A stretch of DNA of 64,000 bases from a virus. This document shows, piece after piece, positions 41,235 through 63,654 of this stretch. The stretch covers positions 64,001 through 128,000 of the IMG/VR virus record IMGVR_UViG_3300042922_000850, one strand, 5' to 3'. Numbering within the stretch: the stretch's first letter is position 1; every line of letters starts with the position of its first letter. Made by a program: the position numbers and the translations under genes. The notes under the pieces were generated by a model. It made no database searches. It was not told where the DNA came from and saw nothing but the letters and a program-made list of their open reading frames with translations.

Positions 41235-42253
41235 TGAAATTAATGTATTTTACGGACCCACATGTACGTGTGAAATCTCCCCTATATCGATTAGATGATT
41301 ACGGGGAACGTATTCTCAAGAAACTTAATTACGTGGCGCAATTGGGCCATGAACACAACGTAGACGGATATATCTGTGGCGGTGATATACTTGACCGCCC
41401 GGATATACCATATTCAATGATGGCGAAACTCATATCTGTTCTAATAAAATTTGAAAAGCCAATTTATACCGTTATTGGAAATCATGAGGAATTCGGATAC
41501 AACCCAAATTCACACCCACGTACAGCATTATCTATTGTGACAGCGTCAGGGTTGCTTACAAGACTTTCAATGAACAACCCCATCATTCTTACGGACGCTC
41601 TGGGAAACAAAGTGTCTTTAACCGGATGCGACGCACATTCCGAACTTGATAAGTATGGCAGAGTATCTGATTATGTAGATATACCAGAGGTTACAAACGC
41701 AGTAAGAATTCATGTTGTGCATGGGTTCCTGGCGAAGCGCCCATGGCCTCAAGTGCCTGTCACCACAATCGACGATATTTTACACACAAAAGCACATCTT
41801 GTTCTTTCTGGCCACGAACACAGCGGTTTCGGAGTAGTCAGAAAGGGCGGGAAAGTGTTTTGTAATCCGGGTGCACTTGGTCGTGTAACTGCGTCGGTAG
41901 GTGATGTAAATTTGGATGTTAAAGTTGCTTTGATTGATACAGGAGTAGCTGTTGATAGTGACGGAATTAATATCGACCTTCTTAAATTCCCTATTGAAAT
42001 TGCTCCTCCGGCAAACGAGGTTATTGATCGCGAGAAACTTGAATTGGAAAAAGAGCATAAACAAGCGCAGGCTGCATTCGTGGCATCTGCAAAAGAAGCA
42101 ATCAAGAAATTTAATTTTGAAGAGGGATTTAACCTTTATTCAATGCTTGATTTCCTTATCCTTGAAGATGAAATTCCGGAAGAAGTACAGAAACTCATGA
42201 GATATTATATTGAGAAGGCAGAGGAAGAATTATCGAAAGGCGGCGGAGAATAA
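41234..42253 (+). CDS. sbcD: SbcD/Mre11-like metallophosphoesterase nuclease
   Basis: TDPH, GGDILD, GNHE, HG, SGHEH, NPG motifs. Confidence 0.85.
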   Translation: MKLMYFTDPHVRVKSPLYRLDDYGERILKKLNYVAQLGHEHNVDGYICGGDILDRPDIPYSMMAKLISVLIKFEKPIYTVIGNHEEFGYNPNSHPRTALSIVTASGLLTRLSMNNPIILTDALGNKVSLTGCDAHSELDKYGRVSDYVDIPEVTNAVRIHVVHGFLAKRPWPQVPVTTIDDILHTKAHLVLSGHEHSGFGVVRKGGKVFCNPGALGRVTASVGDVNLDVKVALIDTGVAVDSDGINIDLLKFPIEIAPPANEVIDREKLELEKEHKQAQAAFVASAKEAIKKFNFEEGFNLYSMLDFLILEDEIPEEVQKLMRYYIEKAEEELSKGGGE

Positions 42254-43436: not shown

Positions 43437-43457
43437 ATGACGAGGGGGGTAAGACCA

Positions 43458-44366
43458 ATGGACATCGCTACATTGTCGACTGTGAAGGAAGGGTCAAAAA
43501 TTGATATCCGTGCCATGATCACAGATAAGAAGACATTATTAAAAACAAATAAAGAAAGTTATCTTTCTTTAGACATTCAGGATGCTACAGGTAAAATAAA
43601 CTTTCCTATATGGGATAATATCGCTACATTGGATAGCGCATTGGAAGTCGGGACACTTGTGGATATTGCCGATGCAATCCTCGGTTCATGGAATGGCGCT
43701 ATCCAGCTGAAAAATCCCAGGTTCCACGTTTTAACAGAAGAGGAGTTAGAGACGGTAGACATCAATCAATTTATCCCATCTTATAATATTCCTCCGGAAC
43801 TGATAGATTATATGGAGCAAACGATTACAAATATGGATGAACCGTATAAAACAATTGCAACCTGCGCCACAGGAGCGTTGGGCTATAATACTCAGCGATG
43901 GAAGGCATTTACTGAATGTGTTGCAGCGGAAAAGCATCACGGAAATAAGCGCGGCGGCTTATTTCTACATACTTACGGTGTTCTCATTAATTCGGAGAGC
44001 GTTATAAATGCATATGTAACAAAACCATTCTTTTGTGACGCAAAAGAAGTTATCAATCCGTCTCGCCTGCGTTTAAAAGCAATTCTCCACGATATCAAAA
44101 AAGTGGATGAATACGAGTACCAAACAAATATCCGAAGAAAACCGGGCAGACCTCTCGGACACATTTATGATGGGGTAAGTTATCTAAGCGAAATCAATAA
44201 AGAAGCTGGATACGTTTTGTCCAAAGAAGAAGAGAATGATATTGCATGGTCAATCTTAACACATCACGGTCAATATGGACCTGCTAATCCTGAGACTTTA
44301 GAGGAATGGATATTACACTTGTCAGATATGATAGATAGCAGGGTTGTAGGATCTGTGGAAAAATAA
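43458..44366 (+). CDS. YhaM/Cbf1-like OB-fold plus HD 3'-5' exonuclease
   Basis: YLSLDIQDATGKI..PIW; KHH...GGLFLHT; LHDIKK; GH; ILTHHG; DMIDSR. Confidence 0.85.
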   Translation: MDIATLSTVKEGSKIDIRAMITDKKTLLKTNKESYLSLDIQDATGKINFPIWDNIATLDSALEVGTLVDIADAILGSWNGAIQLKNPRFHVLTEEELETVDINQFIPSYNIPPELIDYMEQTITNMDEPYKTIATCATGALGYNTQRWKAFTECVAAEKHHGNKRGGLFLHTYGVLINSESVINAYVTKPFFCDAKEVINPSRLRLKAILHDIKKVDEYEYQTNIRRKPGRPLGHIYDGVSYLSEINKEAGYVLSKEEENDIAWSILTHHGQYGPANPETLEEWILHLSDMIDSRVVGSVEK

Positions 44367-46199: not shown

Positions 46200-46607
46200 A
46201 TGTCTAAATTGGTAAGCGCTAAATGCAAAAAATGCGGGAACTATCTTAATTTTGATATTGGAAATATGGATAAAGAAGAAGCTGAGAACTCGCTTAAAGC
46301 AATCCGCAGTTGGCAATGTTCTGCCGGCAATCATGTAGAATTGATGTCACCCTTTGATTTATACGAATTTGATTGGGATAATATCACAGAGAACGAACCC
46401 GTAACAGAAGAACAGTTTCAAGCAGATTTAAAAGAAAAGTTTAAGGAAGTATATTCTTCTGACGAATTTGGAGAAGCATATAGTATTGATAGCTTTGCTT
46501 TAGGGAAGTGCCTTTGCCACCCTCGCAATGGTGACGAGGATAGTATGATCATCTTTGACTTTATTCACGGACCAAGCGGAAAGAGATATTATATATCCAT
46601 GTTATAG
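46200..46607 (+). CDS. hypothetical zinc-binding protein
   Basis: CKKC...CSAGNH. Confidence 0.65.
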   Translation: MSKLVSAKCKKCGNYLNFDIGNMDKEEAENSLKAIRSWQCSAGNHVELMSPFDLYEFDWDNITENEPVTEEQFQADLKEKFKEVYSSDEFGEAYSIDSFALGKCLCHPRNGDEDSMIIFDFIHGPSGKRYYISML

Positions 46608-46623
46608 AAAGGAAACCTCAATT

Positions 46624-47931
46624 ATGAGAAAAATTAAACTGGTAATTCTGCATAATTTTAAGTCTCATGCTCACAGCGAAATTCCATTCGATGATTTTAC
46701 TGCGATAATCGGCCCATCGAATAGTGGCAAGTCAACAGTTTTTAAGGCTATTCGTCTGTGCTTATATAATGAACCATCAGGAGATCGATTCATTACGCAT
46801 GGCGAAAAATTATGTTATGTAGAGGTAAGATTTGATGATAACTCCGGGATACGAAGAACTCGTGGTAAGGATGACCAGGAGATAAACCTCTATGAAATCA
46901 TTCATACAGATGGTAAAGTTGATCCCTATACAAATTTCGGGGCAGGTCCGGTTGCTCCCATTATCGCATTTCATGGTATGCCAAAAGTAAATTTATTTGG
47001 CGAAGAGGAATGTTTGAATATGGCAGACCAATTTTCTGCACCCTTTTTGCTAACCTCGACTTCTGAAAAACGGGCAAAAATGATTGGTAAAATAGCTAAG
47101 ACTGACGTCGCTGACCTTGCTCTCTCAAATCTTAATTCTGAGGTAAGAAATAGAACTGCCTTAAAGAAGAAATATACCAAGGAACTCAAAGAAAAACATG
47201 AATCACTCAAGGAACTAAAGGATTTGCCTTATGCTGAAAGCTTGATAGATTCGCTAGACCTAAAACTTGATAAGGCGAAGAATATCGACAATAGACTAAG
47301 GCGAATTATGGTTATACAAAAAGAATTAGAAGCGCTGACGAAGAAAAAAGACAGTCTCTTTGATTTCATTCAAAAAGAAGCTGACATAAATAATCTGATC
47401 AATCAATTAGATGGGATATTGGCCTTAGACCACAGAATGACAAAGATAATAACCATCCAGAGGAATTTGATAAAGGCTATCGGAGAAAAAGATGCTACGC
47501 AAAGATTAATCGATACCGTAGATATGGATCAGCTTGGCGCTATTTGTATAGATATGGATAAGCTTCTTTCCGTTACTGCAGATGTATTCCATATTCAAAA
47601 GATACAAGAAAAATTAGAGTCAGAGATAAAACGGAAGGGTATCGCAGAAAAAACAATTAAAGATGTTCCAGATGTTGATCTTATTGTCAGTGAATTGGAA
47701 AATTGCCGCTCAACCCTGCTAAGCTTAAACAATATTCTTTCGATTAAGTCAAAACTTGATACAGAAAAGTTAAGGGTACCGAGAGGAAGAGAGGTTATAG
47801 CAAACCTTGAAAAACAATATACTGGTAAATTCGAAATATATAAGCAAGCTCTGATTGATAATAAACAGTGTCCTGTCTGTCAATCAGAAATAACAGAGGA
47901 GAAAGTGGCCGCAATCACAGACTTGATGTAA
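46624..47931 (+). CDS. sbcC: SbcC/Rad50 N-terminal half (Walker A to zinc hook)
   Basis: NFKSH, GPSNSGKS, Q-loop, coiled coil, ends shortly after CPVC. Confidence 0.85.
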   Translation: MRKIKLVILHNFKSHAHSEIPFDDFTAIIGPSNSGKSTVFKAIRLCLYNEPSGDRFITHGEKLCYVEVRFDDNSGIRRTRGKDDQEINLYEIIHTDGKVDPYTNFGAGPVAPIIAFHGMPKVNLFGEEECLNMADQFSAPFLLTSTSEKRAKMIGKIAKTDVADLALSNLNSEVRNRTALKKKYTKELKEKHESLKELKDLPYAESLIDSLDLKLDKAKNIDNRLRRIMVIQKELEALTKKKDSLFDFIQKEADINNLINQLDGILALDHRMTKIITIQRNLIKAIGEKDATQRLIDTVDMDQLGAICIDMDKLLSVTADVFHIQKIQEKLESEIKRKGIAEKTIKDVPDVDLIVSELENCRSTLLSLNNILSIKSKLDTEKLRVPRGREVIANLEKQYTGKFEIYKQALIDNKQCPVCQSEITEEKVAAITDLM

Positions 47932-47943
47932 GGAGGTGGCATA

Positions 47944-50900
47944 ATGCAAGAAGAAAAAGATCGCGATAAGTTTACTCATTTGCACGTACATACCCAAGGT
48001 TCGTTAGCAGATTCTATGTTAAAAGAAATTGAACTTGCAAAAGCAATTAAAGCAAAAGGGATGCACGCAGTTGCGATTACAGATCACGGTAATATGTTCA
48101 ATGTAATAAAGTTCTATAAAGCTTGTAAGCGTGAGGGTATTAAGCCAATAATCGGTATGGAAGCTTATGTCGCCCCGAGATCTAATTTATTAAAACAACA
48201 TAAAATAGATGATGCAAATTACCATTTGGTTCTACTCGCAGAAAACAATGATGGTTATCAGAATTTAATGAGTATTGCTTCAGATTCATCAATTAACGGT
48301 ATGTACTATAGGCCTAGAACAGACAAGTCGAAACTAAGAGAATGGAGCAAAGGCATAATCGCTTTATCTGCTTGTTTAGGTGGAGAGGTTCAGCAATATA
48401 TTCTCGAAAAAGATTACAATACGGCAAAGAAAGTTGCTTTAGAATATCAAGATATTTTTGGAGTTGGTAATTTCTTTTTAGAATTGCAAGACCATGGCCT
48501 GCCTGAACAAAAGATGGTAAATGAAGCTTTGCTTAAAATGAGCAAGGAGACGAATATACCTCTGGTTTGCACAAATGACTGCCATTATCTAACCAATGGC
48601 GATTATGAGCCACACGACGTTCTCATGGCTATCCAAGCAAAGACCACAGTAGATAGCGAAAAACGAAAAAAGTATGGATCGGATCAATTCTATGTAAAAA
48701 CGCAAGAAGAAATGGAACAACTATTCAGTTATATCCCAGAGGCGCTTGAAAATACAGTAAAGATTGCAGAGCGATGTAATGTGGTAATTGATTTTCACTC
48801 TAATAAATTACCGCCATTCCGGTTACCGGCTAACTTTACTGGGACTAATTTCGAATATCTTATGATGCTTACGTATAAAGGTTTGAAGAAATTTTATGGT
48901 GAAATAACGCCAGAGATTAAAGAAAAAGCTGAATACGAAGCAAATGTTGTAAATGGTATGGGTTATGTAAATTACTTCTTAATTGTGTGGGACTTTTTCC
49001 GGTTCTGCATTGAGGGAACTGATGAACCAGGCCAACCAAGTCCTCCAGGATGGATACCAATTTTAACAGGTCCAGGCAGAGGAAGCGGAGCAGGAAGTAT
49101 TCTGTTATATGCCTTAGAAATTACTAAAATAGATCCAATAAGATATGACCTTTTGTTCGAGAGATTTTTAGACCCATCTCGTGTTTCCATGCCAGATGTG
49201 GATAGCGATTTCGAATATGAGAGAAGACAGGAGGTTATTGATTATGTAATTCGAAAATACGGAAGACAATCTGTGTGCCAGATTATAACGTACGGCACAT
49301 TAGCAGCAAGGGCCGCTATTCGAGCAGTTGGTAAAGCGCTTGATTTGCCGTATAGTATTTATGATGAAACGGCAAAAATGATACCGATTGAACCGGGGAT
49401 TACAATTAAAGATGCTCTGGAACAAAATCCAGATTTATTTCGTAAGTACGATAATGATGAAATCATACATCGTCTGCTTAATATTTCTATGAGACTAGAA
49501 GGACTACCGACTTATACAAGTACTCATGCTGCAGGTGTGTTAATCACGGATGATCGTGGAGTTACCGCACACGTTCCGGTTTGGGCAAATGAGGGCGCGA
49601 TTGTATCTCAATATGATATGAATATACTTGAAGAGTTAGGGCTTCTGAAAATGGACTTCCTTGGGCTTCGTACACTAGGAGTAATTCGAGAAGCTATGGA
49701 CATGATTAAGAAAAACCATGGGGTTACAGTTGACCTTGATCAGGTTTATCAATGTCTGGATATGGCTCCGCTACGATTACTTGAAGAAGGGAAGACAGAT
49801 GGTATTTTCCAGTTAGAAGGTGGCGGTCTAACTGAGTTTGTAAGAGAGTTAAAGCCAAAGAGCATGGAAGAGTGGATTGCTGTAATTTCTCTCTATCGCC
49901 CAGGACCAATGGATTCAATTCCACAATATATGGCCAATCGAAGAAACCCGGACCTTATCCAATATCCGTTCGAGGTATTACGAGAAGTGCTTGGGGAAAC
50001 CTTTGGAGTCCTCTGCTATCAAGAGCAATGTATGAAATCTGTTATTATTGTATCAGGATATGATAAATCCGACTCTGATGGCTTTCGTAAGGTTATTTCG
50101 AAGAAGAAGAAAGACCTAATCCCATTACATCGAAAATGGTTTATCGACGGAAGAAACCAAGTGGATTTGGACGAATACGGAAAGCAAAAGGACTATGGGC
50201 ACGTTATACCAGGAGGCATTACAAAAGGGCAAGCAAGAGAAGCTTTAGAGAGGTTCTTCGATAAGATGGAGGACTTTGGTAAATATGCTTTTAACAAATC
50301 CCATGCCGCAGCGTATGCCGTTGTTGGATATGTAACTGCGTGGCTGAAGTTCTATTATCCAGTAGAATTTATGGCGGCATTAATGAATTCTTTAGCAGGA
50401 GCTACAAAGCAAACAAAAACCGCTCGTTATATTAACCACTGCAGAAACAGTCTTGGTATTGATATTGTTGCACCAGATATTAACACGAGTGAGGAAAGAT
50501 TTGTTGCCACAGAAGATGGAAAAATCATCTTTACATTAAACGCAAAAAATGTATCAGCGACTAGCTTGCAAATCATTAAAGCGCAAAGAGCCACATCTAA
50601 ATTTAGAGACTTTGATGACTTTATACGCAGAACTCTCGACGGAGTGGGAAAACAAGATATTACTGCGTTCGCTTCTATAGGAGCATTTGATAGCCTTGGT
50701 AGCATAAGTTCACAAATCACTGCAGGAGCCGCCGATATTGCTGACAAGATGTCCAAAACCAAACAAGCAAGAGCCAGAGCAAGAAATTCGGGGAGAGCAT
50801 TTGAAATTGAAAAATGGTTAACCCTCGATGTAGCTATACCTTATGGTATAAAAGAGTTTCCGAACAGAGTTCGTTGGGCTTTGGAAAAAGAATATCTGGG

Positions 50901-51501
50901 ATTATATCTAACAGGCCACCCAATCTATGACTATCTTTATTACTCAGAACAATACTCTAATTTTAAGCTATCCGAGTTAGATTACGAGATCGATGAAGAA
51001 ACCGGATTGGTAATTATGAGTACACCAATCCACGGAAGAAAAACAGTAAGGTTTGTTGGAATGTTTAGCAGCATAAAGAAAACCATTACAAGAAAGAATA
51101 AAGAAAAGATGGCTATCGCAGAAGTTGAAGACTTAACCGGTACCGCAAAGATGATGATATGGCCAAATAATTATCTGGCTGTGGAAGACTTATTATCTAC
51201 GGATAAGGTCTACGACTTTACAGGATATATTAAAACAGATCCAGAGGAACCACCGGTCATTGTCCTAACTTCTCTCGAACCACTTGAAATACCAAAAATC
51301 AAGAAGCTCGTTATTCGAGAAAACGACAGGTTTAAACTCAAATCCGTTGTTGATTCCATTCGTTACAACAGACTTTTTAGAGGAGATACTCCGGTATATG
51401 TGGAGTGTGGTAATATCAGGTTGCTGCTTGATAATAAATGCTGGGTAAACTTGGACACAATAGACTTGAGTGAGTGCGAATATCAAATTATTGACAAATA
51501 A
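47944..51501 (+). CDS. dnaE: DNA polymerase III alpha subunit (family C)
   Basis: PHP HLHVH/TDHG, GPGRGSGAGS, FERFL, MPDVDSDF, KMDFLGL, YAFNKSHA, C-terminal OB fold. Confidence 0.97.
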   Translation: MQEEKDRDKFTHLHVHTQGSLADSMLKEIELAKAIKAKGMHAVAITDHGNMFNVIKFYKACKREGIKPIIGMEAYVAPRSNLLKQHKIDDANYHLVLLAENNDGYQNLMSIASDSSINGMYYRPRTDKSKLREWSKGIIALSACLGGEVQQYILEKDYNTAKKVALEYQDIFGVGNFFLELQDHGLPEQKMVNEALLKMSKETNIPLVCTNDCHYLTNGDYEPHDVLMAIQAKTTVDSEKRKKYGSDQFYVKTQEEMEQLFSYIPEALENTVKIAERCNVVIDFHSNKLPPFRLPANFTGTNFEYLMMLTYKGLKKFYGEITPEIKEKAEYEANVVNGMGYVNYFLIVWDFFRFCIEGTDEPGQPSPPGWIPILTGPGRGSGAGSILLYALEITKIDPIRYDLLFERFLDPSRVSMPDVDSDFEYERRQEVIDYVIRKYGRQSVCQIITYGTLAARAAIRAVGKALDLPYSIYDETAKMIPIEPGITIKDALEQNPDLFRKYDNDEIIHRLLNISMRLEGLPTYTSTHAAGVLITDDRGVTAHVPVWANEGAIVSQYDMNILEELGLLKMDFLGLRTLGVIREAMDMIKKNHGVTVDLDQVYQCLDMAPLRLLEEGKTDGIFQLEGGGLTEFVRELKPKSMEEWIAVISLYRPGPMDSIPQYMANRRNPDLIQYPFEVLREVLGETFGVLCYQEQCMKSVIIVSGYDKSDSDGFRKVISKKKKDLIPLHRKWFIDGRNQVDLDEYGKQKDYGHVIPGGITKGQAREALERFFDKMEDFGKYAFNKSHAAAYAVVGYVTAWLKFYYPVEFMAALMNSLAGATKQTKTARYINHCRNSLGIDIVAPDINTSEERFVATEDGKIIFTLNAKNVSATSLQIIKAQRATSKFRDFDDFIRRTLDGVGKQDITAFASIGAFDSLGSISSQITAGAADIADKMSKTKQARARARNSGRAFEIEKWLTLDVAIPYGIKEFPNRVRWALEKEYLGLYLTGHPIYDYLYYSEQYSNFKLSELDYEIDEETGLVIMSTPIHGRKTVRFVGMFSSIKKTITRKNKEKMAIAEVEDLTGTAKMMIWPNNYLAVEDLLSTDKVYDFTGYIKTDPEEPPVIVLTSLEPLEIPKIKKLVIRENDRFKLKSVVDSIRYNRLFRGDTPVYVECGNIRLLLDNKCWVNLDTIDLSECEYQIIDK

Positions 51502-51781: not shown

Positions 51782-52762
51782 TTGCTCGGTAAACCGTGGA
51801 CAGATGCAGATAAAGACTTCTTAATTAAGTCATACGCTGAAGAAAGTATCGAATACATATCTGATTATCTAGGCAGAAGTAAAAATGCTGTTATGGCCAA
51901 AGCCAGAGAACTTGACTTGAAAAAGATAGTCAAAAAGAATACTTGGACAGAACAAGAGATTTCTTATTTGGTAAAGATGTACCCTAAACAAAGTGCCAAA
52001 TACATCGCTAAGAAATTAGGGCGTGGGGTCGATGCGGTCTTCCGTATGGCACACAAAATGAATTTAACAAAGAAAAGGGGCAGAAAAGCAAAACCCAGAT
52101 GGACACAAGACGAAATATTCTACCTCACAAATTTATATGCAACAAAAGATATTAAAAAGATTGCGGAAAGATTAGGAAGAACGGAATCGGCTGTAATTCA
52201 TAAGGCTTCACAACTTCATTTATTCAGGGAGAAGAATTACAATCGAAACGGTGTTCCTTGGGCAGACTCGGAGTTCGATTATCTGAGAAAACACTATGCA
52301 ACAAAGAATACCGTAACGCTATCCATTGAGATGGATCGCCCAATAAGCACTATTCAGGAGTATGCAGCTAGGATGGGTATACACAAGAAAAGAGCCGCCG
52401 CACCTAAGCCACTTCGAAAAATAAGTCATGGCGGTATAGGGAAGTGGACGGATTGGGAATCGCAATATCTTAGAGAGACGTATGATATATTCCATTGGAA
52501 ACACATGCGTTATGATGCATTGTGTCGTTCTCCCAAGTCAATCAACAAAAGATTAAAAACCATGGGACTATACGAACTACGTGTACGAAGAGTTCGTAGT
52601 TATACGGTAGTTTTTTATTACCGAACAGAAGAAGAACTGAGACAAAAATGGGAATATGTGAATTTTTGGAAAGAGGTGACAAACGATGCTTACCCAGGAT
52701 CAAGAAAAGATGGCTACAGATTTCGAGGCAGCATTGCAGCAGTTGAAAGAGGCTGTAAGTAA
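51782..52762 (+). CDS. protein with five tandem Myb/HTH-like repeats
   Basis: W(T/A)xxE..YL...Y......IA..LGR...AV...A..L repeated five times. Confidence 0.8.
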   Translation: MLGKPWTDADKDFLIKSYAEESIEYISDYLGRSKNAVMAKARELDLKKIVKKNTWTEQEISYLVKMYPKQSAKYIAKKLGRGVDAVFRMAHKMNLTKKRGRKAKPRWTQDEIFYLTNLYATKDIKKIAERLGRTESAVIHKASQLHLFREKNYNRNGVPWADSEFDYLRKHYATKNTVTLSIEMDRPISTIQEYAARMGIHKKRAAAPKPLRKISHGGIGKWTDWESQYLRETYDIFHWKHMRYDALCRSPKSINKRLKTMGLYELRVRRVRSYTVVFYYRTEEELRQKWEYVNFWKEVTNDAYPGSRKDGYRFRGSIAAVERGCK

Positions 52763-53378
52763 AATGCGATTTAGAAAGGAAACTCTTCTAAACGACTCTG
52801 AAAAGTTACAAAAAGACATCGATGATTTAAAGATTGGTGATTATGATAAGGCAGCTATCCTGATGAATAAATTAGCAAACAATCAACGGGCAGCGGCAAG
52901 TGAACAGTTATCTAAATTAGGGACGATGGCGTTACAGTATACTTTTGGCCCTAACTATGAGATGCAAATTGAAATGGCAGGGACTTTGAAAAAGCCTAAA
53001 GCAGACATATGGTTTATTCAAGATGGAAAAGTCGATGAAAGAGAAGATCCGATGGAAGACAATGGTGGTGGCGTTGTCGATATTATTGGTTCCTCCATGC
53101 GCGTAGTGATTATGGATAACTATTCTGATGCTTCAAAAGGAATTCCTTATATTGATGGACCGATCCTATTTGATGAACCCTTCAAGATGGTTAGTAGTGA
53201 ATACATACCTCAAATGAGCGAATTTATTTCTAACGTAGCGAAGGATTTTAACCGACAGGTTATTGCGGTAACCCATAACGATTATCTATCATCTATGACA
53301 GACTCAAACATTTTTATCTCATTGGATGAGAACAAAAGGAGCGTTGTCGTTATACAAAAGAACAAAAAGGAGGAATAA
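52686..53378 (+). CDS. sbcC: SbcC/Rad50 C-terminal half
   Basis: Signature-like NGGG, Walker B ILFDEPF, H-loop AVTH. Confidence 0.85.
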   Translation: MLTQDQEKMATDFEAALQQLKEAVSKMRFRKETLLNDSEKLQKDIDDLKIGDYDKAAILMNKLANNQRAAASEQLSKLGTMALQYTFGPNYEMQIEMAGTLKKPKADIWFIQDGKVDEREDPMEDNGGGVVDIIGSSMRVVIMDNYSDASKGIPYIDGPILFDEPFKMVSSEYIPQMSEFISNVAKDFNRQVIAVTHNDYLSSMTDSNIFISLDENKRSVVVIQKNKKEE

Positions 53379-54762: not shown

Positions 54763-55701
54763 ATGACTCAAAATTTAGAATCAGTTTTATCATTTTTATT
54801 AAGACCGGCGGTAGAATATAACCTGCCGCAGAAAAAATATTGGGGAACAGTGGTTAAAGAAAATTCAATGTTAGTTGCTTCTGGTAGTTTCACAATTGAA
54901 ATCGGGAACATTCATTTCGACAAAAAGCCAGATGGAGAGTATTTTAGTTTTCTGGAGAGCAAGTTTGCTGAGTTTGCATATCCGCTAAATCCGGCTCAGA
55001 TTCAAGAAAAAGTGAGTTCTCAGTGCAGCTTTGTTGGCAAGGTGGTATTCCCATTAACAAATATTATTAACCGGTTGTCTGATATCGATAAGCAACTCGT
55101 ACCTAATGGCAAGGATTCTATATTGAAACGCTGTAGACTTATCGTGTCTCCTGGGTTTTTAGAATCTGGAGATATGACACTAAAGTTTACAGACAATGGA
55201 AACGGGTGGGAATTCAAACATGCTTCTCTACCAAAACCAGTTCGCCTACACAAAGATTCTGTAATAGGACCTGACGGAATAAGAAAAGATACTGTGTACA
55301 GGTGCGAATTAAAAGATAGCGATGATCTTCTTGTAAATGTAATTGAACCGTATGGAAAAATGAGACTTGGTATTTTATATTCTCCAAAAGGATTTGTACC
55401 GGTGAATTTAGAGGAGATTAACCGAATGAGCGGTAAAATACCACCCGACATGATAATCTGTTCAAATATAATTGAACCGAACCCAATCCCGGCTCCACCA
55501 ATTCATTTAGACGCTAGTACAATGTTCGATTTATTAAATGTATTTTTAATGTGCCAGAACACAGAAAAGATAGAAATGCACTTACCTGATGATCCCAACA
55601 AACCGGTAATGTTTACTAACGTTCCTACGAGTGATGATGATTTAAGAATAAGAGTTGTTGTGGGAACGCTCAACCCGTTCTACGGAGCACAGAGGAGGTA
55701 A
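54763..55701 (+). CDS. putative diverged sliding-clamp (DnaN-like) protein
   Basis: C-terminus IHLDASTMFDLLNVF..EKIEMHL....KPVMF...VVVG resembles beta-clamp domain III. Confidence 0.4.
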   Translation: MTQNLESVLSFLLRPAVEYNLPQKKYWGTVVKENSMLVASGSFTIEIGNIHFDKKPDGEYFSFLESKFAEFAYPLNPAQIQEKVSSQCSFVGKVVFPLTNIINRLSDIDKQLVPNGKDSILKRCRLIVSPGFLESGDMTLKFTDNGNGWEFKHASLPKPVRLHKDSVIGPDGIRKDTVYRCELKDSDDLLVNVIEPYGKMRLGILYSPKGFVPVNLEEINRMSGKIPPDMIICSNIIEPNPIPAPPIHLDASTMFDLLNVFLMCQNTEKIEMHLPDDPNKPVMFTNVPTSDDDLRIRVVVGTLNPFYGAQRR

Positions 55702-55708
55702 TTAGCTA

Positions 55709-56227
55709 GTGTATAGTACTTTTCATGAAAGGTTGGAAGAAGATGCGGATATTGACCTTGAGCACTTCAGTGTCTTGAGGCATACAGGCAAGGAGTTAAT
55801 AGCGCAAGGGGAGAATATCGCCTATCCAATTTTCGCATATGGATGGGACTATCTTCTTTCAAGTACGTTGATTACAATCCATAACAATGACTTCAGGAAG
55901 GAAGTTAAAACAAAGTATCAAGAGGCATTTATTGATGCGGATGACCTGGACTTCATTCCAAGTGTACTAGAAGTCGCAGATGCTATTGATGAATATAATA
56001 TGATTGTTATCCATGATTTTTATAAAAATAATGGATATTCTATCGATGATATTGATGTTATCATTGGAAATTATATTCAAGAGTTCTCATGCTCCATGGA
56101 GGATTGGGTTGAAGAAGTTTTTAGAGATTTTGGATACGCTTATTATGGTTCATCCGTAAGTCGGTGCCACGATATTACGGATGAATATGCTCCACAGAAT
56201 ATACTTCTAGTGGAATTTTTAAGATAG
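55709..56227 (+). CDS. acidic paralog 1 (QN-motif family)
   Basis: APQNILLVEF. Confidence 0.7.
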   Translation: MYSTFHERLEEDADIDLEHFSVLRHTGKELIAQGENIAYPIFAYGWDYLLSSTLITIHNNDFRKEVKTKYQEAFIDADDLDFIPSVLEVADAIDEYNMIVIHDFYKNNGYSIDDIDVIIGNYIQEFSCSMEDWVEEVFRDFGYAYYGSSVSRCHDITDEYAPQNILLVEFLR

Positions 56228-56240
56228 GAGGCACTAATTT

Positions 56241-56885
56241 ATGAACAACCTCGCAATAAAAGGGGACCATTCCTTAGAAACTAGTGACACCCCACGGGTA
56301 TATTTCTATAACAAATATTATAATATGCCGGAAGCATACGACGCGGATACACTATGTAGTATGGTTATTAATCATCCACAGTATACAGAAGATAAGGAGG
56401 AGAACGAGAAGAGAATACTTCAAATCTATAATGATGTAATGGAACAGATGGGTGGCGAAGCTATCCCATCATTTATCGATATTACCGCTTCTGTTTCATC
56501 GTATAATGAAAATATATTTTATAATATAGCTGTTCTTCAAGTAATGGAAAATGGTTCATATTTGGATGTGGACGATATTGAGGAGCTGCTCGAAGAGGAA
56601 ACAACTTCCGTAATGGAGTGGTTTAGTTATAATTTAGAATATTGTAATTTGGATGACTCTATATTTGAACTGTTGCATAGAAATAAATTGTCCTTTTCGG
56701 TGTCTGAAGATGACTCACAATATGAAGATTTAATAAGAGTAGATGAGGTTGTTAGAACTTTGCCAGAAGGCGGAAAAGAATATGACATTATAATTGCTGA
56801 TTGCCAGAACATAATTCTCCCGTGCTTTGGAATTCGTGATTTCTTTTTACAAGACAACCTTATCTTATATAGACCTGGGGAGTGA
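56241..56885 (+). CDS. acidic paralog 2
   Basis: ADCQNIILPCF. Confidence 0.7.
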   Translation: MNNLAIKGDHSLETSDTPRVYFYNKYYNMPEAYDADTLCSMVINHPQYTEDKEENEKRILQIYNDVMEQMGGEAIPSFIDITASVSSYNENIFYNIAVLQVMENGSYLDVDDIEELLEEETTSVMEWFSYNLEYCNLDDSIFELLHRNKLSFSVSEDDSQYEDLIRVDEVVRTLPEGGKEYDIIIADCQNIILPCFGIRDFFLQDNLILYRPGE

Positions 56886-56889
56886 AAAA

Positions 56890-57546
56890 ATGTTTGATTT
56901 AGATTTTGTCAACAAAAGTTTGGGTTTATGCGACGAACCATACATGTCAAACGAAGATTTTCACAATCGGACAGAAGAAATACTAGGTTCGCTATTCTTA
57001 AGATCAAATTGCGTTACAAAAAAGGATTACCGAAAACATTGTGATTACATTTTCAAATCATATGAGATTAACTTTAAAGCTGTGGGTGGGCCGCCAGATA
57101 TTGAAGATATTATTCTTAATATTGAAACTGACAATTGGGAAAAAATGTTGGAACTTGGTAAATTAGATTTATGTTACGGACAAGGGAAACAGGGGTATTT
57201 AAAATTTATCAGCTATCAGGATTTTGAAAAAGACTTTATGGCGGAACAAGCAATTGAGAAATTGGCCGAAATGTGGTATACCGATTATCATTTTGAGGAT
57301 TCTGACGATATGTTCGAATATGTTATGAAAATCTTGAATGAGCACAATTTAGCATACACTTATCCAGAATCTAAATTGATTGAGTATCGCAAGGGTAAAA
57401 GAGAGATTGTTTGCTTCAACGACTGTCAGAATTTATTACTCCCGGAATGGCAGCTCCATATGATTATTTCGCGAGGTGGCAGCCATGAATATACAGCGGA
57501 TGAAATCAAAGCCCTGTTGAGTGTATCTATTATATCAAAAGATTAA
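56890..57546 (+). CDS. acidic paralog 3
   Basis: NDCQNLLLPEW. Confidence 0.7.
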   Translation: MFDLDFVNKSLGLCDEPYMSNEDFHNRTEEILGSLFLRSNCVTKKDYRKHCDYIFKSYEINFKAVGGPPDIEDIILNIETDNWEKMLELGKLDLCYGQGKQGYLKFISYQDFEKDFMAEQAIEKLAEMWYTDYHFEDSDDMFEYVMKILNEHNLAYTYPESKLIEYRKGKREIVCFNDCQNLLLPEWQLHMIISRGGSHEYTADEIKALLSVSIISKD

Positions 57547-57558
57547 GGAGGGAATTGT

Positions 57559-58209
57559 TTGAGCAATGAGATTTCTGTAAAAAACGATTATTCCGAGCAA
57601 TTTGAAAACTTAATGAGTAAGATAGTCTCCTCTTTTGTGGACAAAGAGGAGACTCGTTATAAAGCCCAAGAAAAAATAATCACGGATGCTTATATGGAGG
57701 TCTTAAATTATGGAGGAGATAGTGCGCCCGACTTTTCAGAAATTGTCTTGAATATAGAAGAGCGGAATTCCGATATATTGGCAGAACTAGCTGCTATGGA
57801 TATGGAATGCGGAATGATGTGTCCGGAGCACTCTCATCAAGAACTGACATCATATTTTATGGGGCCGGCAGAAGACGAAGAAGATAATTTGTACTCAGCA
57901 TATTTAAGTGCATGGTATGAAGAATACTCGGCAGAATTTCGTTATGAGCTACCATATTTTATAAGCACAGTTTTGGAAGAATTGGGCTTTTGTTATTTGA
58001 TTAGTGACGAGGCTGATGGGCCTAAAGATTATCAATATGGCTTATCGAATAACTTTGCCATTTATGTTAATGATGCACAAAATTTATTACTACAAGATTG
58101 GCATCTTAAAATACTTGCTGGAGACCGATTAGGTAACTACAGTTATACACAGCAAGATATAGAAAATTTGCTTAACATCAGATTTGATTCAAAACCAGAA
58201 AGGGGGTAA
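57559..58209 (+). CDS. acidic paralog 4
   Basis: NDAQNLLLQDW. Confidence 0.7.
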   Translation: MSNEISVKNDYSEQFENLMSKIVSSFVDKEETRYKAQEKIITDAYMEVLNYGGDSAPDFSEIVLNIEERNSDILAELAAMDMECGMMCPEHSHQELTSYFMGPAEDEEDNLYSAYLSAWYEEYSAEFRYELPYFISTVLEELGFCYLISDEADGPKDYQYGLSNNFAIYVNDAQNLLLQDWHLKILAGDRLGNYSYTQQDIENLLNIRFDSKPERG

Positions 58210-58214
58210 ATAAT

Positions 58215-58844
58215 TTGTATGCTGTTGAAGAATCTAAAGAAACGCAACTATGCAGTTTCTACGAGGGGCGATTAGATGAATTGCTCGATGACATGTTTCT
58301 CGGGGAAAGCTGGATCGAGACACCTGAAGATTGGGAGCGCAAGGAAGAGAAGTTGATGGAAATCTATCAGGAGGTATGGACCAATGAGCTTGTTACAAAA
58401 ACAGCCGTGCCGGAATTATCAGATATTTTAGATGCTGTTTACGATCACAATATGGAAATACAATCAGAAATTGTGGCTCTCGATCTTGAATACGGCCAAT
58501 ATGGTGAACGGTCATTTTATGTAGAAGACTTTTACGACGATAAAGAAGATGCCCAAGAAGCTGTAGAAGAGGCTTGGGAAAACGACCTCAATATAGAGAC
58601 TAATTATATGTACAACACAGATAGTTTGGTATTAAAAATATTGCATAAATTAAAATGCTCTTTCTTGGCAAACGAACAGACATTGCACGAATTCTTTTGT
58701 GAAGACTGGCCAGAGGGGTGTGATGCAGTAGTTGGTGATTGCCAGAATTTATTGCTTCCAGAATGGCATTTAGCGTCAATGCAAGAATATGAACACTCTG
58801 TGACAGACGAAGAAAGAATATTGGTACAATTGGTATCGAGGTGA
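58215..58844 (+). CDS. acidic paralog 5
   Basis: GDCQNLLLPEW. Confidence 0.7.
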   Translation: MYAVEESKETQLCSFYEGRLDELLDDMFLGESWIETPEDWERKEEKLMEIYQEVWTNELVTKTAVPELSDILDAVYDHNMEIQSEIVALDLEYGQYGERSFYVEDFYDDKEDAQEAVEEAWENDLNIETNYMYNTDSLVLKILHKLKCSFLANEQTLHEFFCEDWPEGCDAVVGDCQNLLLPEWHLASMQEYEHSVTDEERILVQLVSR

Positions 58845-58848
58845 CGAC

Positions 58849-59214
58849 ATGAGTTATTTTTTAATACCGGACTACGGGACTCTTAATATAGGCTGTCCGT
58901 CAGGAGAAGATATATTAATCTATATGTACCGGGCTTACATGGATTGTTGCAAGCCGCATAAGGTATTTGGTTATCTCTCCGATACAGCGCCAAGTTTATT
59001 TGAGTTTTATGATAGTCTGACAGACCAAGTGCACTCATCAGATCGCAGAACATTTTTATTCCGAGGGATTGCATTAAACCGGGGAGAGCTAAGCGATCCA
59101 TATTTTGTGGAGATGCTTTTAAAAGACTTCCTGTTTCAATATACGAGAGATGATGGGATTGAGGGATGCGATTGCCAAAATATAATACTACAGGAGATGG
59201 TTGAAGATGAGTAG
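58849..59214 (+). CDS. acidic paralog 6
   Basis: CDCQNIILQEM. Confidence 0.7.
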   Translation: MSYFLIPDYGTLNIGCPSGEDILIYMYRAYMDCCKPHKVFGYLSDTAPSLFEFYDSLTDQVHSSDRRTFLFRGIALNRGELSDPYFVEMLLKDFLFQYTRDDGIEGCDCQNIILQEMVEDE

Positions 59215-59518
59215 AGAAAGCAAGATAATCGAGGAGAAGATACTCTCAGAATACTTCAAGATTATAAGTGAAGGATTTGTTCCTCAAACAAAAGCTTTAA
59301 GAGAAAAGGTAAAGTACCGTATGGATGTAGAATGTTTTGATCTTATATACGGTCAAACATTTGAAGACGAGATAACGGAAAACGCAATACACGATGTTCT
59401 GTCGCTTTATAAGCATGTGCATTATCATGACGGAAAGCGGTTTTTCGAATGTCAAAACCCATTATTTTTCGAGTGGTTTTCTTATCAGAAAATTCTACTG
59501 CTAACACAAAATCCTTAA
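59207..59518 (+). CDS. paralog 7
   Basis: FDLIYGQ; FECQNPLFFEW. Confidence 0.7.
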   Translation: MSRESKIIEEKILSEYFKIISEGFVPQTKALREKVKYRMDVECFDLIYGQTFEDEITENAIHDVLSLYKHVHYHDGKRFFECQNPLFFEWFSYQKILLLTQNP

Positions 59519-59545: not shown

Positions 59546-60286
59546 ATGATTAATACAAAATATCAAGCAGTAGAATGTTTTACGTTTTTGCAAAAGATTT
59601 GCTCCAGAAATGGATGTGAGGAATGTGAGGAGAAGTCATGCGGAGTTTTGTTTGTCGGCCAACACGCTTACTCTGCTACTGCCAATATTGTTGGGAGAAT
59701 AGGTGTTAATGATAATCTTCCGATGGACAATCCAATTTTCTGGAGCTACGGCAGGGAGGGAGAAATTAATCGCCCAAGCCAAGATAAGTTTCTACTAAAC
59801 ACGAAGGGATACATTAAAAATAATCCATCCATGGGAGCATTTTTAAGCAGCGGTTTTATAGATCGCTTTGATCATTACTTGAACAAAGCTCCTGCGAATG
59901 ATTTCCGTATTCGCAGGAAAGATCTATTGGATCACTTAGACAGTCAAGGCTTAAGTTCGGCAAAACAAAACAAAATGAAAATACAAATTGGCTCAGCATT
60001 AACGGACGTGACATTTAATGCTGAGCCAATTAAATGGACAAAGGCAATGGATAGTCCATTTTCATTTGAGTTGCCTCGCTTTGTATACCCTGGTACATAT
60101 CAAAAAAGCAATATCGATAAAAACGTGGTCTGTTCTATCAATTTGCTATCTTTCTATGAAATTATTGCAAATGGGTTTACAGAGTATGAAATTATCCGTA
60201 TTAAATACGACAACGCTGGCCCTGTTGTTATCGAGGGAAAAGCAAGAAATAAAAGTGAGGTTTTCTTTGCTGTATCTCAAATATGA
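59546..60286 (+). CDS. second putative diverged sliding-clamp-like protein
   Basis: FRIRRKDLLDHL; SINLLSFYEII...IRIKYDNAGPVVI...FFAV. Confidence 0.35.
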   Translation: MINTKYQAVECFTFLQKICSRNGCEECEEKSCGVLFVGQHAYSATANIVGRIGVNDNLPMDNPIFWSYGREGEINRPSQDKFLLNTKGYIKNNPSMGAFLSSGFIDRFDHYLNKAPANDFRIRRKDLLDHLDSQGLSSAKQNKMKIQIGSALTDVTFNAEPIKWTKAMDSPFSFELPRFVYPGTYQKSNIDKNVVCSINLLSFYEIIANGFTEYEIIRIKYDNAGPVVIEGKARNKSEVFFAVSQI

Positions 60287-60441: not shown

Positions 60442-63400
60442 ATGAACAAAAAGGAATGGTATGAGCAAACAATAGAATTCATCACAAACGATCTTGAGGA
60501 TTTTTACCAGCATTTTTATAAAAATGATGAGAAAGGTTTTAAACTCGTTTCTATTGGGAGCGGTTACAGACTAAACCCATGTCCGGTATGTGGGCACAAC
60601 GATTGCGCAACTGTAGGAGAAGCCGTGAATTGTTTTTCTTGCCATTGGTCTGGTACCCATATTAGTGCATGGTACGAGTATGCTACAGGAGTGTTGGGTA
60701 TTCCGCTAAGGGATGCTATTGCGAAACTAGACATATTTACAGGTCTTAGATTTCCAAACTCAGCCGGTAGCAATATTGAGGACTATGCGCAGGAAATAGC
60801 TAGACAGAACATCTTAAGAGTTGCTGAAAAACACTATCATGAACAGCTGATAAAATGTACTCAAACATTTAATGTGGGAACCCGGTGGGTAACCCCGTTA
60901 GATTATCTCCTGAAAATAAGACAGAGAAAAATGACAACTATTGAAGATATGAAAATAGGCTTCATATCGAATTATTTTGATCTGCATAAACTACTTATTT
61001 CTATGGGGTATACCAAACAACAAATCAAAGATGCAAAAGCATGGGCTCCAGAAGGATTATTTATCTATTACTACAAAGATCCTCTTACAAAAGATATCAC
61101 GAGGATTAATACGAAAAACCCATTTCAAGCCAAGATACAGAAAAAAGATGATAGTGGCAGCACCATCGAGGGCGATGTTATTCAAGGATACTCAGTTGGT
61201 GATAAAGTGCCAATGTTTACCCCGCGGTTTTCTTTTAAGAAACCTTTTGTGGCGGTCGAAGGGGAAAATGACCTCGGTGCAATTTACGAAAACGGAGCTA
61301 CTAATTCAAGTTGTATCGGTGGTAACCTTTCCGATGAACAATTTGAAGCTGCCTTCGAAAATGCTGAAAATATCATATATGTAATGTTCGACAATGATGA
61401 AAAGGGCAATGAATATGTTGATAGGATGAACAGGCTTCTTCCTGATAAAGATATAAGAAAGATTGAATATCCCTTGAATTTCAATGACCCAGATGATTAT
61501 TACCGAAGCCCCGAGGCTAAGCATATAGACATCTTGATAAAGGACGCGAAGAGACTTGAAACGGAAGGATATAAAATATCTCATATTGGCAATGCATGGA
61601 CAATTGCGAACCGCCACAGAAAAGTTGAATTTATTATCGATATGCACAGTTCCGACAAAGGTCAAATGGTCGGAACTGTGAATCTCTTTAGCGATGGAAT
61701 ATTAATTGATAGGGAAGTCGATAAGGACTTAACTAAATGCAAAGCTAATAAGAAGCCATTCAATTTTTATCTACATGATAAGATTAATGAGCACTTTAAT
61801 TCCGGATTAGGTGAAAAATCTGCTGATGAGCTAGCGGACATTTATTGGTGTTCTGCAAAGAAACAGGAAATTGTAAGGCGATTAGCTAAAATCTTATTTG
61901 ATTCAAATAATGATGATAAGATTGTTAATATGCTGAAGATAAAACTAAAGACTTCGGACGGAAGAGAGGATGTCATTGACGCTATTTTAAAAGAAGCTAA
62001 TGATGTTCAGAATAAGCTTGTCGGGGCGTACGTCGGAAGCAATATTCCAAAAATCAAAGTATCACAATATTTTAATATTGGTAATAACGACGGTTATTTT
62101 TATTTCATGAACTACAAGCAAGATGGTGATTCTCTAAGAAGATTGCCTTTCTTATTGAGAAATGATAAAACTTTAATCCGTCTAGATTTACTAAAAAGAA
62201 AGGATCCACAATGTCTGCTTCTTGTGGATAATAAATATGAGCTGCCAGTTGAAATTAATGAAGCTATTATGGATTCCGATGAGTGCTCCCTTACTCAGGC
62301 AAATGTATATAAGTACATAGACGGGCAAATACCATTAGAGGAGCTAGACCCCAAGAATTTAGCAGATGTTTTAACTGAGTATTTTGAGAAGTTTTATTAC
62401 TCCACGGATAGCTCGGTATATAAAATACTATCTTTGTACACCATTCTTACTTACTACTATGAATTATTTGATAGTATCCCTTATCTTTATATTAATGGTC
62501 AGAAGGGATCAGGAAAGTCTGTAATCGGTTCTGGACTTCACCTGTTCTGCTTTAATGCAAAGATGGCAACGGATATTTCAGATGCATCATTATTTCGTAT
62601 GACTAGTTTAGAGGGCGGTACTTTAATTCTTGATGAAATGGAGCAATTAACTTCAAGAAAGAAGGGTTCAGAAAGCACTATGGGTATTGTTTTAAAAGGT
62701 GGGTATAAACGGGCAAGTAATGTTTATCGCGCGGATGTGGAGACCACCTTAAAGACAAATCGATATGATAGCTACGGTCCTAAAGTAATCATCAATATCT
62801 TCGGACTTGATGATGTTATTAAAGATAGGTGTATTCAAATCAATACATTCAGGTACAAATTAACCAGAGAAACAAAGAGAGAAGACCCGAAAAGTTATTT
62901 AAATAGGCTGGGGGGTATCCGTGATTTAACCAGTAAGTTATGCTTATCTGCTTTGGAACATTTTCAGGAGGTAAACAAAATTAAACAAAGTTGCTTCTTT
63001 GAAACCAACAATGACAAGGCTAGACTGTCCGAGATTCTAACCCCAATTCTCGTTATGGCAAAGTTTGTAGATGCCAAAGAGCGCAAAGCTATGACTGAGA
63101 AAGATCTTTCATTAACTAATGGAGACTGTATTGGGTCTTATGAAAAAGCGGTTCAAGATTTCTACATAAATGTCATAAAGGGTGACAAGGAGGACACTGA
63201 CCGCAATACGCCAGAGGGTATTATTACAGCGTGTATTCCTCAAATTGCAAAAGAACTTTATGGAATTATCCCAGATCCAGAGAAAGTCTATACCATTCCA
63301 ACCTCTCATAAATACACAGAACCAATTAAATACAGTGTAGAAGAGGGGTGGTTTGATGTTAACGTAATTCATTTAAAGTGTTTTGTGGAAGAGCATCAGC

Positions 63401-63654
63401 CAGGAGAAACCGCTCATACCAAAATTGTAGTGAGATGGTTAAAGACGTGTTTTGATATTCCTTACAAGGATATTAAGAGATCTATTGCAAATATTGAAAA
63501 CGAAGACTTGATCAGAGAATTCAAGGGGAATGCAAAGCCAAAGATAAACACGTACCGATTTTATTTCAGAGACTTTATCGATTCTATAGGCGAACAATTT
63601 TTAGATAAAACACCTAGATCAAAAGCACCTGAAAAGAAAGTTACATTATTCTAA
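60442..63654 (+). CDS. DNA primase (zinc finger plus TOPRIM) fused to a P-loop ATPase/helicase-like domain
   Basis: CPVC..CFSC; VEGEND, FDNDEKG, DPDD; GQKGSGKS, LILDEME. Confidence 0.85.
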   Translation: MNKKEWYEQTIEFITNDLEDFYQHFYKNDEKGFKLVSIGSGYRLNPCPVCGHNDCATVGEAVNCFSCHWSGTHISAWYEYATGVLGIPLRDAIAKLDIFTGLRFPNSAGSNIEDYAQEIARQNILRVAEKHYHEQLIKCTQTFNVGTRWVTPLDYLLKIRQRKMTTIEDMKIGFISNYFDLHKLLISMGYTKQQIKDAKAWAPEGLFIYYYKDPLTKDITRINTKNPFQAKIQKKDDSGSTIEGDVIQGYSVGDKVPMFTPRFSFKKPFVAVEGENDLGAIYENGATNSSCIGGNLSDEQFEAAFENAENIIYVMFDNDEKGNEYVDRMNRLLPDKDIRKIEYPLNFNDPDDYYRSPEAKHIDILIKDAKRLETEGYKISHIGNAWTIANRHRKVEFIIDMHSSDKGQMVGTVNLFSDGILIDREVDKDLTKCKANKKPFNFYLHDKINEHFNSGLGEKSADELADIYWCSAKKQEIVRRLAKILFDSNNDDKIVNMLKIKLKTSDGREDVIDAILKEANDVQNKLVGAYVGSNIPKIKVSQYFNIGNNDGYFYFMNYKQDGDSLRRLPFLLRNDKTLIRLDLLKRKDPQCLLLVDNKYELPVEINEAIMDSDECSLTQANVYKYIDGQIPLEELDPKNLADVLTEYFEKFYYSTDSSVYKILSLYTILTYYYELFDSIPYLYINGQKGSGKSVIGSGLHLFCFNAKMATDISDASLFRMTSLEGGTLILDEMEQLTSRKKGSESTMGIVLKGGYKRASNVYRADVETTLKTNRYDSYGPKVIINIFGLDDVIKDRCIQINTFRYKLTRETKREDPKSYLNRLGGIRDLTSKLCLSALEHFQEVNKIKQSCFFETNNDKARLSEILTPILVMAKFVDAKERKAMTEKDLSLTNGDCIGSYEKAVQDFYINVIKGDKEDTDRNTPEGIITACIPQIAKELYGIIPDPEKVYTIPTSHKYTEPIKYSVEEGWFDVNVIHLKCFVEEHQPGETAHTKIVVRWLKTCFDIPYKDIKRSIANIENEDLIREFKGNAKPKINTYRFYFRDFIDSIGEQFLDKTPRSKAPEKKVTLF

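Follow-up and report, generated by a model that had tools for sequence, protein, structure and literature searches.

The DNA analysed here, called the window throughout, is a stretch of 64,000 nucleotides (bases 64001-128000) of IMG/VR record IMGVR_UViG_3300042922_000850, the 166,758-bp genome of an uncultured phage, which has direct terminal repeats and is rated complete. Seven consecutive genes of the window, p1 to p7, encode acidic paralogs that share a glutamine-centred motif resembling that of sliding-clamp ligands. They lie between two genes, named 'up' and 'dn', of which 'dn' encodes a sliding clamp by its modelled fold and 'up' probably does so as well. We interpret this block, at roughly even probability, as a private sliding-clamp system equipped with a family of paralogous clients or adaptors. 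This interpretation is supported by the bracketing of the array by clamp genes, its operon layout, the fit of the motif to the clamp-binding consensus, the concerted change of the motif across the paralogs, the persistence of the array in related phages, a candidate clamp-binding tail on the neighbouring primase-helicase and the position of an eighth copy next to an RNase H gene.

The paralog family and its motif

The seven open reading frames lie on the + strand and carry their motifs exactly as quoted by an earlier model-made note on the letters of the window, hereafter the sequence-only reading. Its placement of the array inside the replication module also stands, between the genes for DNA polymerase III alpha (Pol III alpha, 47944-51501) and a Toprim primase-helicase (60442-63654). 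The first gene, p1 (172 amino acids (aa), 55709..56227), encodes a divergent member with PQNILLVEFLR at its extreme C-terminus and the Q-N at 56195. The full-length paralog p2 (214 aa, 56241..56885) carries ADCQNIILPCF from 56799, matched p5 in BLASTP with E 1.5e-8 and scored E 5e-71 with the hidden Markov model (HMM) of the family. For p3 (218 aa, 56890..57546; NDCQNLLLPEW from 57421) the BLASTP values were 1.4e-11 to p4 and 3.7e-10 to p5; its frame is also open from a TTG at 56827, upstream of the called start. Membership of p4 (216 aa, 57559..58209; NDAQNLLLQDW from 58072) was given by BLASTP, the family HMM and a clade of its own. The copy used for modelling was p5 (209 aa, 58215..58844; GDCQNLLLPEW from 58737), with a net charge of -40. 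The short member p6 (121 aa, 58849..59214) has the C-terminal motif CDCQNIILQEMVEDE from 59170, including DCQNIILQE, and the minimal member p7 (105 aa, 59201..59518) carries FECQNPLFFEW from 59447.

The paralogy proposed for the seven genes was confirmed, whereas the copy number of seven was not. p2-p5 found one another in BLASTP (E 1e-7 to 1e-11, 22-30 % identity). p1, p6 and p7 gave weak, non-significant BLASTP matches only and were joined to the family by profiles. In hhalign, the ortholog profile of p1 aligned with that of the family at 97.7 % (E 2e-12), with the Y/P/[DE]-[IV]/N positions in register, that of p6 at 90.5 % (E 1.4e-6) and that of p7 at 94.9 % (E 4.3e-8); the family HMM matches p7 orthologs in two pieces. 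The genome holds eight copies, the eighth being p8, a full-length member at genome positions 57516-58190, 62 kb upstream and outside the window. It follows directly after an RNase H gene, and does so in a related phage too (L016, L017). A six-frame translation of the complete genome contains [DE]-x-Q-N-h-h-h 7 times, in each case within p2-p7 or p8, so the motif is more than a chance match; the version in p1, Q-N-h-h-h, is looser and is matched by chance about 10 times in the genome.

The composition is as acidic and aromatic-rich as had been noted, with D+E at 16-25 %, F+W+Y at 11.5-15 % and net charges from -12 to -40, p7 excepted at -3. The additional sub-motifs that the sequence-only reading had seen in subsets of the copies are real, Y51, P66, [DE]70-I71 and N79 (p5 numbering) being conserved at 84-99 % family-wide, and LDL.YGQ is restricted to the clade of the window. 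An exhaustive profile search of 1.84 billion metagenome cluster representatives returned at least 115 family proteins at E<=1e-3, nearly all 185-240 aa long, and among the 115 hits of any length none was fused to a known domain. P0097, a protein of 298 aa from another metagenome, looks by eye like a long member fused to a short p6/p7-like one, which suggests that neighbouring paralogs may act together. The family, reported beforehand as unrecognised, is undescribed as far as library, profile and fold searches go: Pfam, PHROGs and NCBIfam gave nothing above noise for any copy or for 113 relatives, and the family profile found nothing better than E 0.1 in the PDB. Neither blastn of the cassette nor tblastn of 'up' and the primase matched any of 50,697 phage records, and full-text searches of the literature turned up no description of such a cassette.

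Conservation and the motif logo were calculated from 113 sequences, with residues numbered as in p5. Q177 is present in 100 %, N79 in 99 %, Y51 in 97 %, D175 in 94 %, P66 in 88 %, L143 in 86 % and N174 in 85 %. The logo reads h-h-h-N-D-[C 71 %/A 21 %/S 7 %]-Q-N(73 %)-h-[L 75 %/I/M]-[F 44 %/L 28 %/I 13 %]-P(58 %)-[E/D 67 %]-[F/W 65 %]. Its anchors are the glutamine (100 %), L/I/M at Q+3 (97 %) and F/L/I at Q+4 (86 %). The PCNA-interacting protein (PIP) box is defined as Q-x-x-[ILM]-x-x-[FY]-[FY]; the adjacent aromatics at positions 7 and 8 are not seen in this family, position 7 being E/D in 67 % and position 8 F/W in 65 %. The canonical bacterial clamp-binding motif is Q-phi-x-[L/M]-[F/L] or Q-phi-x-[L/M]-x-[F/L] (PMC11139829). 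As a clamp-ligand-type motif, which is how it had been read, the family motif agrees with this published consensus at positions 1, 4 and 5 but not at position 2; the copies of the window read QNLLL, QNIIL, QNILL and QNPLF.

The AlphaFold2 (AF2) model of p5, built with 113 sequences, reached a predicted local distance difference test (pLDDT) of 91.7 and a predicted template-modelling score (pTM) of 0.87. Five helices (2-26, 37-59, 68-96, 110-129 and 131-145) precede a small alpha/beta unit with three strands. An ordered coil after the strand 169-173 contains D175-L181, and P182-W184 open the helix 182-189. The description of the motif as lying near the C-terminus had to be refined: its glutamine stands 9-42 residues from the C-terminus (p1 and p6 end 9-11 residues past it), and the motif is modelled not as a free linear peptide but as a strand-to-helix turn of the folded core, a confident, ordered placement which argues that it is no disordered tail. 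Against PDB and BFVD the p5 model had no Foldseek match with an E-value under 0.5. In VIA-align, run on 48,161 chains, it reached Z 6.0 at best, for generic helical hairpins covering residues 1-147 only, so that the C-terminal alpha/beta unit was hardly probed by the fold search, and the ESM Atlas held no usable match for p5. In the alignments, p7 has helices 2, 3 and 5 together with the sheet and the motif, and is missing helices 1 and 4 as well as the acidic inserts; on this comparison p7 marks the minimal core, and the acidic helical arms are the variable part. The motif is the only element common to all eight paralogs, including the 105-aa p7, and is retained in p6 and p7 though N79 is lost there.

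Flanking clamp-type genes, persistence of the array and concerted motif change

The array had been described as flanked by two clamp-like proteins, which held for 'dn' (246 aa, 59546..60286, +) by fold and for 'up' (312 aa, 54763..55701, +) through an ESM Atlas model only. The clamp models of Pfam (beta N-terminal, central and C-terminal domains; gp45 C-terminal) matched nowhere in the genome. The AF2 model of 'dn' (pLDDT 78.5, pTM 0.78) gave 493 Foldseek matches in the PDB at E<=1e-3, and the best 50 of the 493 were all beta clamps, PCNA or 9-1-1. VIA-align superposed it with Z 15.7 and a root-mean-square deviation of 3.2 A over 201 residues onto residues ~133-364 of a beta clamp, that is, domains II-III. 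With these superposable tandem domains, 'dn' is a two-domain sliding clamp by its modelled fold. In the bacterial beta clamp, domains II and III form the pocket for the clamp-binding motif (PMC11139829). Residues 70-93 of 'dn' (59753-59824) have the lowest pLDDT of the model (<50) yet are among the most conserved: I74, N75, K81, F82, L84, N85 and Y89 are invariant in a four-sequence alignment, and K81, F82, L84 and N85 across 11 sequences. This segment may form an interface, or a loop induced by a partner.

'up' had no sequence match in Pfam, PHROGs, NCBIfam or PDB. Its ESM Atlas model (pLDDT 0.55) was nearest to a pol III beta cluster, with template-modelling (TM) scores of 0.48/0.60 over 194 aligned residues, and gave TM scores of 0.47/0.56 to PCNA; on this model 'up' probably has the sliding-clamp fold. 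A profile comparison of 'up' with 'dn' revealed no relation. The complete genome gave no match to PF13177, PF16790 or PF00004 at E<=10, and the same loader searches were positive in control genomes for PF13177 and PF00004. At least one sliding clamp is thus encoded by the phage itself, but a recognisable AAA+ clamp loader or member of the T4 gp62 family is not.

We propose that the nine genes from 'up' through p1...p7 to 'dn' form one operon of the putative private clamp system. They are spaced by 4-27 nucleotides or overlap, and the sole terminator-like site within the block is one weak hairpin inside p2. Ahead of 'up' is a 430-nucleotide spacer that contains two hairpins and a strong ribosome-binding site. 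A second spacer, of 155 nucleotides and with a promoter-like site, lies between 'dn' and the gene of the primase-helicase (1070 aa, 60442..63654, +; Pfam Toprim_2), which is the downstream anchor of the block.

A survey of copy number and synteny with the family HMM found the same gene order in every relative that was assigned to a contig (L006, L007, L008/L009, L010/L011, L012, L015, L019/L020 and L021); L010/L011 was binned with a Clostridia metagenome-assembled genome and L012 comes from a fermentation metagenome. Where the locus is long enough, Pol III alpha is followed by a few small genes, 'up' (305-318 aa), a gene of ~170 aa, three or four of ~210 aa, two of 100-130 aa, 'dn' (246-258 aa) and the Toprim primase-helicase. 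The long paralogs thus number 3 or 4 depending on the lineage. Orthologs of both 'up' and 'dn' bracket the array in L006, L008/L009, L010, L012, L015, L019 and L021. Each gene of the window has a one-to-one ortholog at the same position and its own clade in the family tree. This speaks against a recent origin of the expansion that had been proposed and indicates that the duplications are old and that all copies were kept.

Identity to the window protein in L006 or L012 is 76 % for the primase, 61-66 % for 'up', 55-57 % for 'dn', 53-70 % for p1, p6 and p7, and 33-43 % for p2-p5, which makes the long acidic copies the fastest-evolving genes of the block. Across the orthologs identities are 30-61 % for p1 and 26-59 % for p6, with the motif kept, and 35-57 % for 'dn'. 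A locus scan based on 'dn' found no relative in IMG/VR and one metagenome locus. Among phage records, Pol III alpha comes closest to unannotated gut contigs, with 40-45 % identity, and such a cassette was not found in MT835501.1, the one gut contig examined.

The two residues following the glutamine at +3 and +4 change together across the paralogs. In the clade of the window (window, L006, L008, L012), p1-p6 have L/I at Q+3 and mostly L, sometimes I/F, at Q+4, and p7 has L-F. In L010 and L019, M-F is found in 10/10 equivalent genes and p7 again has L-F, and in L021 three of the six genes have I-N and p7 has I-F. The M-F genes span at least four orthogroups (p1, p2, middle copies, p6) that had separated before these phages did. 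When the 215 profile columns of the long paralogs were ranked by being uniform within a clade and different between clades, Q+3 and Q+4 came first and second, and Q+7 came sixth. Recent gene conversion was considered as a cause and rejected: the motif is the only nucleotide repeat, at 72-84 % identity, and its many synonymous codon differences are not those of a recently converted tract. The same two residues changed alike in independent paralogs are what would be expected of one shared partner. The L/M and F/L variants are alternatives also found in bacterial motifs, and Asn at Q+4 in several copies of L021 is hard to square with a buried core position.

A further candidate site is found at the end of the primase-helicase, which terminates in KKVTLF (63634-63651), a variable charged linker followed by L-F-COOH. 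The ...LF tail is present in 6/6 lineages examined (window, L006, L008, L010, L012, L019; KKVTLF, KKNLLF, KKNKLF, VKDKLF and LEDKLF), and the enzyme is likely a further clamp client. p7 and the primase, which flank 'dn', keep L-F (I-F in p7 of L021), and p1-p6, which follow 'up' and co-vary, do not; on a speculative reading there may be two pockets, one on each clamp. A 299-aa protein ending in VLF was also considered and set aside, since it is Pam3 gp34-like by Pfam and its tail is probably coincidental.

The proposed clamp system and its rivals

In the private clamp system that we propose, 'dn' and probably 'up' would build ring clamps with two beta-clamp-like domains per chain. The core of each paralog (helices 2, 3 and 5 plus the three-stranded sheet) would present N-D-[C/A/S]-Q-N-h-[L/M]-[F/L]-P-[E/D]-[W/F] at the strand-to-helix turn, and this motif would insert into the hydrophobic cleft that separates the two domains of the clamp, in the manner of Q-phi-x-[L/M]-[F/L] on bacterial beta. 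The long, very acidic helical arm, specific to the orthogroup yet conserved between phages, would give each clamp-bound copy its own job. Such a job may be the recruitment of a particular enzyme, p8 probably working with RNase H, or the covering of the basic DNA channel, by which use of the clamp would be regulated. Docking, the identity of the partner clamp and all downstream functions are what we infer from the observations above.

Clamps and motif-bearing clients are as such already known. The present case differs in its putative clients, which are paralogs of one fold without a known match, encoded between two clamp genes, with the motif embedded in the modelled fold, and in having no recognisable loader. 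The consensus of Dalrymple for clamp binding is QL[SD]LF, and some clamp-binding motifs sit in folded domains, as AMSLF in delta and QPLLI in a structured region of MutL (PMC11139829). As in clients of bacterial DnaN, the family has an invariant Gln, [L/M/I][F/L/I] at +3/+4 and, as in delta and MutL, a structured context. Unlike for those clients, the presumed partner is a two-domain phage clamp without detectable sequence similarity to DnaN, and the putative clients, whose docking is predicted from their sequences, are not unrelated enzymes but eight paralogs of one family, most of them encoded beside the clamp. The clients of the T4 clamp gp45 are gp43, gp33 and gp55 (PMC2988020). T4 resembles the present system in having a phage-encoded clamp, the clients of which include small acidic proteins with a short hydrophobic/acidic clamp-binding element; here p1, p6 and the primase carry the element at or near the C-terminus. 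The tails of the T4 clients, in contrast, are interchangeable unstructured C-termini on unrelated proteins, whereas the present motif is modelled as part of a conserved fold, and T4 has an AAA+ loader (gp44/62), whereas here the candidate clients are paralogs encoded in an operon with two clamp genes and no loader was detectable. The MuC/Mor activators of phage Mu bind the host clamp through Qx[D/E][L/M]F motifs (PMC12867686). They share with the family a near-consensus motif deviating at position 2 and use it, as the family would, for a non-polymerase function at the clamp. They differ from it in that MuC is a DNA-binding activator on the host clamp without a paralog array; no DNA-binding or transcription domain is recognisable here. 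Gp168 of Staphylococcus phage Twort is likewise a small protein of a Bacillota phage that targets a sliding clamp, and suggests a role for an acidic surface at the channel; as far as a review describes it, Gp168 does not use the canonical pocket, unlike the motif proposed here, and targets the host clamp (PMC11139829).

Several observations weigh against the private clamp system. Position 2 of the motif is Asn in 73 % of the sequences, where the canonical residue is aliphatic. The motif is modelled as ordered (pLDDT ~89-92), directly after a beta-strand and preceded by the near-invariant N-D, which with Y51 and N79 could instead make up a polar site that serves structure or ligand binding. The co-variation comes from only three or four independent lineages, and the clamp fold of 'up' from a low-confidence ESM model. 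Finally, Pol III alpha of the phage has no clear Q-x-x-L-F: at residues ~950-960, where a gut-phage homolog reads G-Q-M-T-L-F-D, it and its relatives have R-A-F-E-I, R-T-F-D-A or D-S-F-D-F, the Gln and Leu being lost and only x-F-[DE]-h being left. One inference from such a polymerase is that a paralog bridges it to the clamp.

The most serious competitor, which we nevertheless consider unlikely, is that the motif is nothing more than a turn with a structural or ligand-binding role and that the proteins are early or middle factors of host takeover or anti-defence, for instance DNA mimics directed at different DNA-binding proteins of the host, acting independently of any clamp; their location in the replication module would then be explained by the timing of expression alone. 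The extreme charge, to -40 in 209 aa, on long helices like those of Ocr/ArdA-type mimics is what such proteins would show, as is an identity of 33-43 % for the long paralogs against 76 % for the primase, which fits an arms race, and the ordered motif after a strand, co-conserved with Y51, N79 and D175, fits a structural turn. This view leaves unexplained why two clamp-type genes strictly bracket the array in all lineages, and why exactly the two anchor positions of a clamp-type motif change in concert in independent orthogroups. One-to-one orthology and fixed order are also unlike the typical fast-turnover anti-defence islands, and no match to a known mimic was found by sequence (libraries) or fold (Foldseek E<=0.001; VIA-align Z<=6). 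Less probable by some way is a role of the paralogs as decoys for the host beta clamp, or as its inhibitors, with the phage replicating on its own divergent clamps. A phage with its own clamp could afford poisoning that of the host, the motif fits the bacterial consensus (PMC11139829), and Twort Gp168 is reported to block beta by occupying the DNA channel (PMC11139829). The beta pocket is, however, highly conserved across bacteria (PMC11139829), so that the lineage-wide shifts to M-F and I-N fit a fast-evolving phage partner such as 'dn' (35-57 %) better, and seven or eight conserved, non-redundant orthogroups exceed the need of one host target.

Of similarly low probability, if marginally less remote, is a loader-free system in which the eight paralogs are ATP-independent handlers that open, assemble or park the two clamps, as openers, assembly chaperones or a loader substitute resembling the 'wrench' of delta. 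Docking would then be structured and delta-wrench-like, p1-p6 would serve one pocket, p7 and the primase tail the other, and p8 would deliver RNase H. In T4 the loader genes adjoin the clamp gene; here the complete genome gave no DNA_pol3_delta2, AAA or T4 gp62 match despite its own clamp or clamps. In the model the motif marks the place where a loop passes into a helix within a folded domain, a setting also described for AMSLF of delta (PMC11139829). Against this, the paralogs lack a P-loop and did not match loader subunits in structure (best VIA-align Z 6.0), their long copies vary between 3 and 4 in the array, so that there is no fixed pentamer, and the host loader or self-loading may serve the clamps instead.

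Sliding clamps are known as 'toolbelts' shared by unrelated enzymes through a short peptide. In this phage lineage the clamps appear to have been reduced until their sequences no longer betray them, any recognisable loader appears to have been dropped, and eight diversified proteins with a docking element appear dedicated to the clamp system, seven of them in an operon with the clamps. If docking by the private clamp system is true, the block would be a compact, genetically linked model for the co-evolution of clamp-client specificity, in LL, MF and IN flavours that would be natural orthogonal clamp-peptide pairs, and a model for managing a clamp without an AAA+ loader. A family of at least 115 clusters, so far missing from Pfam, PHROGs and NCBIfam, would also receive a name.

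Neighbouring genes and possible host

The stretch is present in two soil-metagenome DNA runs, and no RNA dataset is listed among those containing it. Its G+C content is ~37 % and the + strand carries nearly all genes. Upstream of the array lie genes for a metallophosphatase (41234-42253) and an HD/OB protein (43437-44366), followed by the N-terminal half of an SMC/Rad50/SbcC-type ATPase (458 aa, 46555-47931), which ends in a weak match to the Rad50 zinc hook. The DnaE-type Pol III alpha (1185 aa, 47944-51501, +) has the Pfam domains PHP, DNA_pol3_alpha, finger, HHH_6 and OB. Between its gene and the C-terminal half of the ATPase (230 aa, 52686-53378, matching AAA_15 positions 214-373) lies the gene of a 326-aa protein (51782-52762), so that the apparent two halves of the ATPase are separated by the Pol III alpha and 326-aa protein genes. 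The 326-aa protein consists of about five repeats of a helix-turn-helix (HTH)-like unit, W-T-x-x-E...Y...IA..LGR...V..KA..L, and has faint Pfam matches only (HTH, SANT, DnaA_C); its ortholog in L010 has a faint match to GcrA.

Outside the window, 5' of RNase H and p8, a small regulator of the AbrB/MazE type is encoded at L005 193-749 (genome ~56286-56842), and its ortholog in L016 carries Pfam MazE_antitoxin. The adjacent gene encodes a 95-aa protein which we take to be SpoIIID-like. Together the two proteins hint at an endospore-forming Bacillota host, in agreement with the Clostridia metagenome-assembled genome that carries L010.

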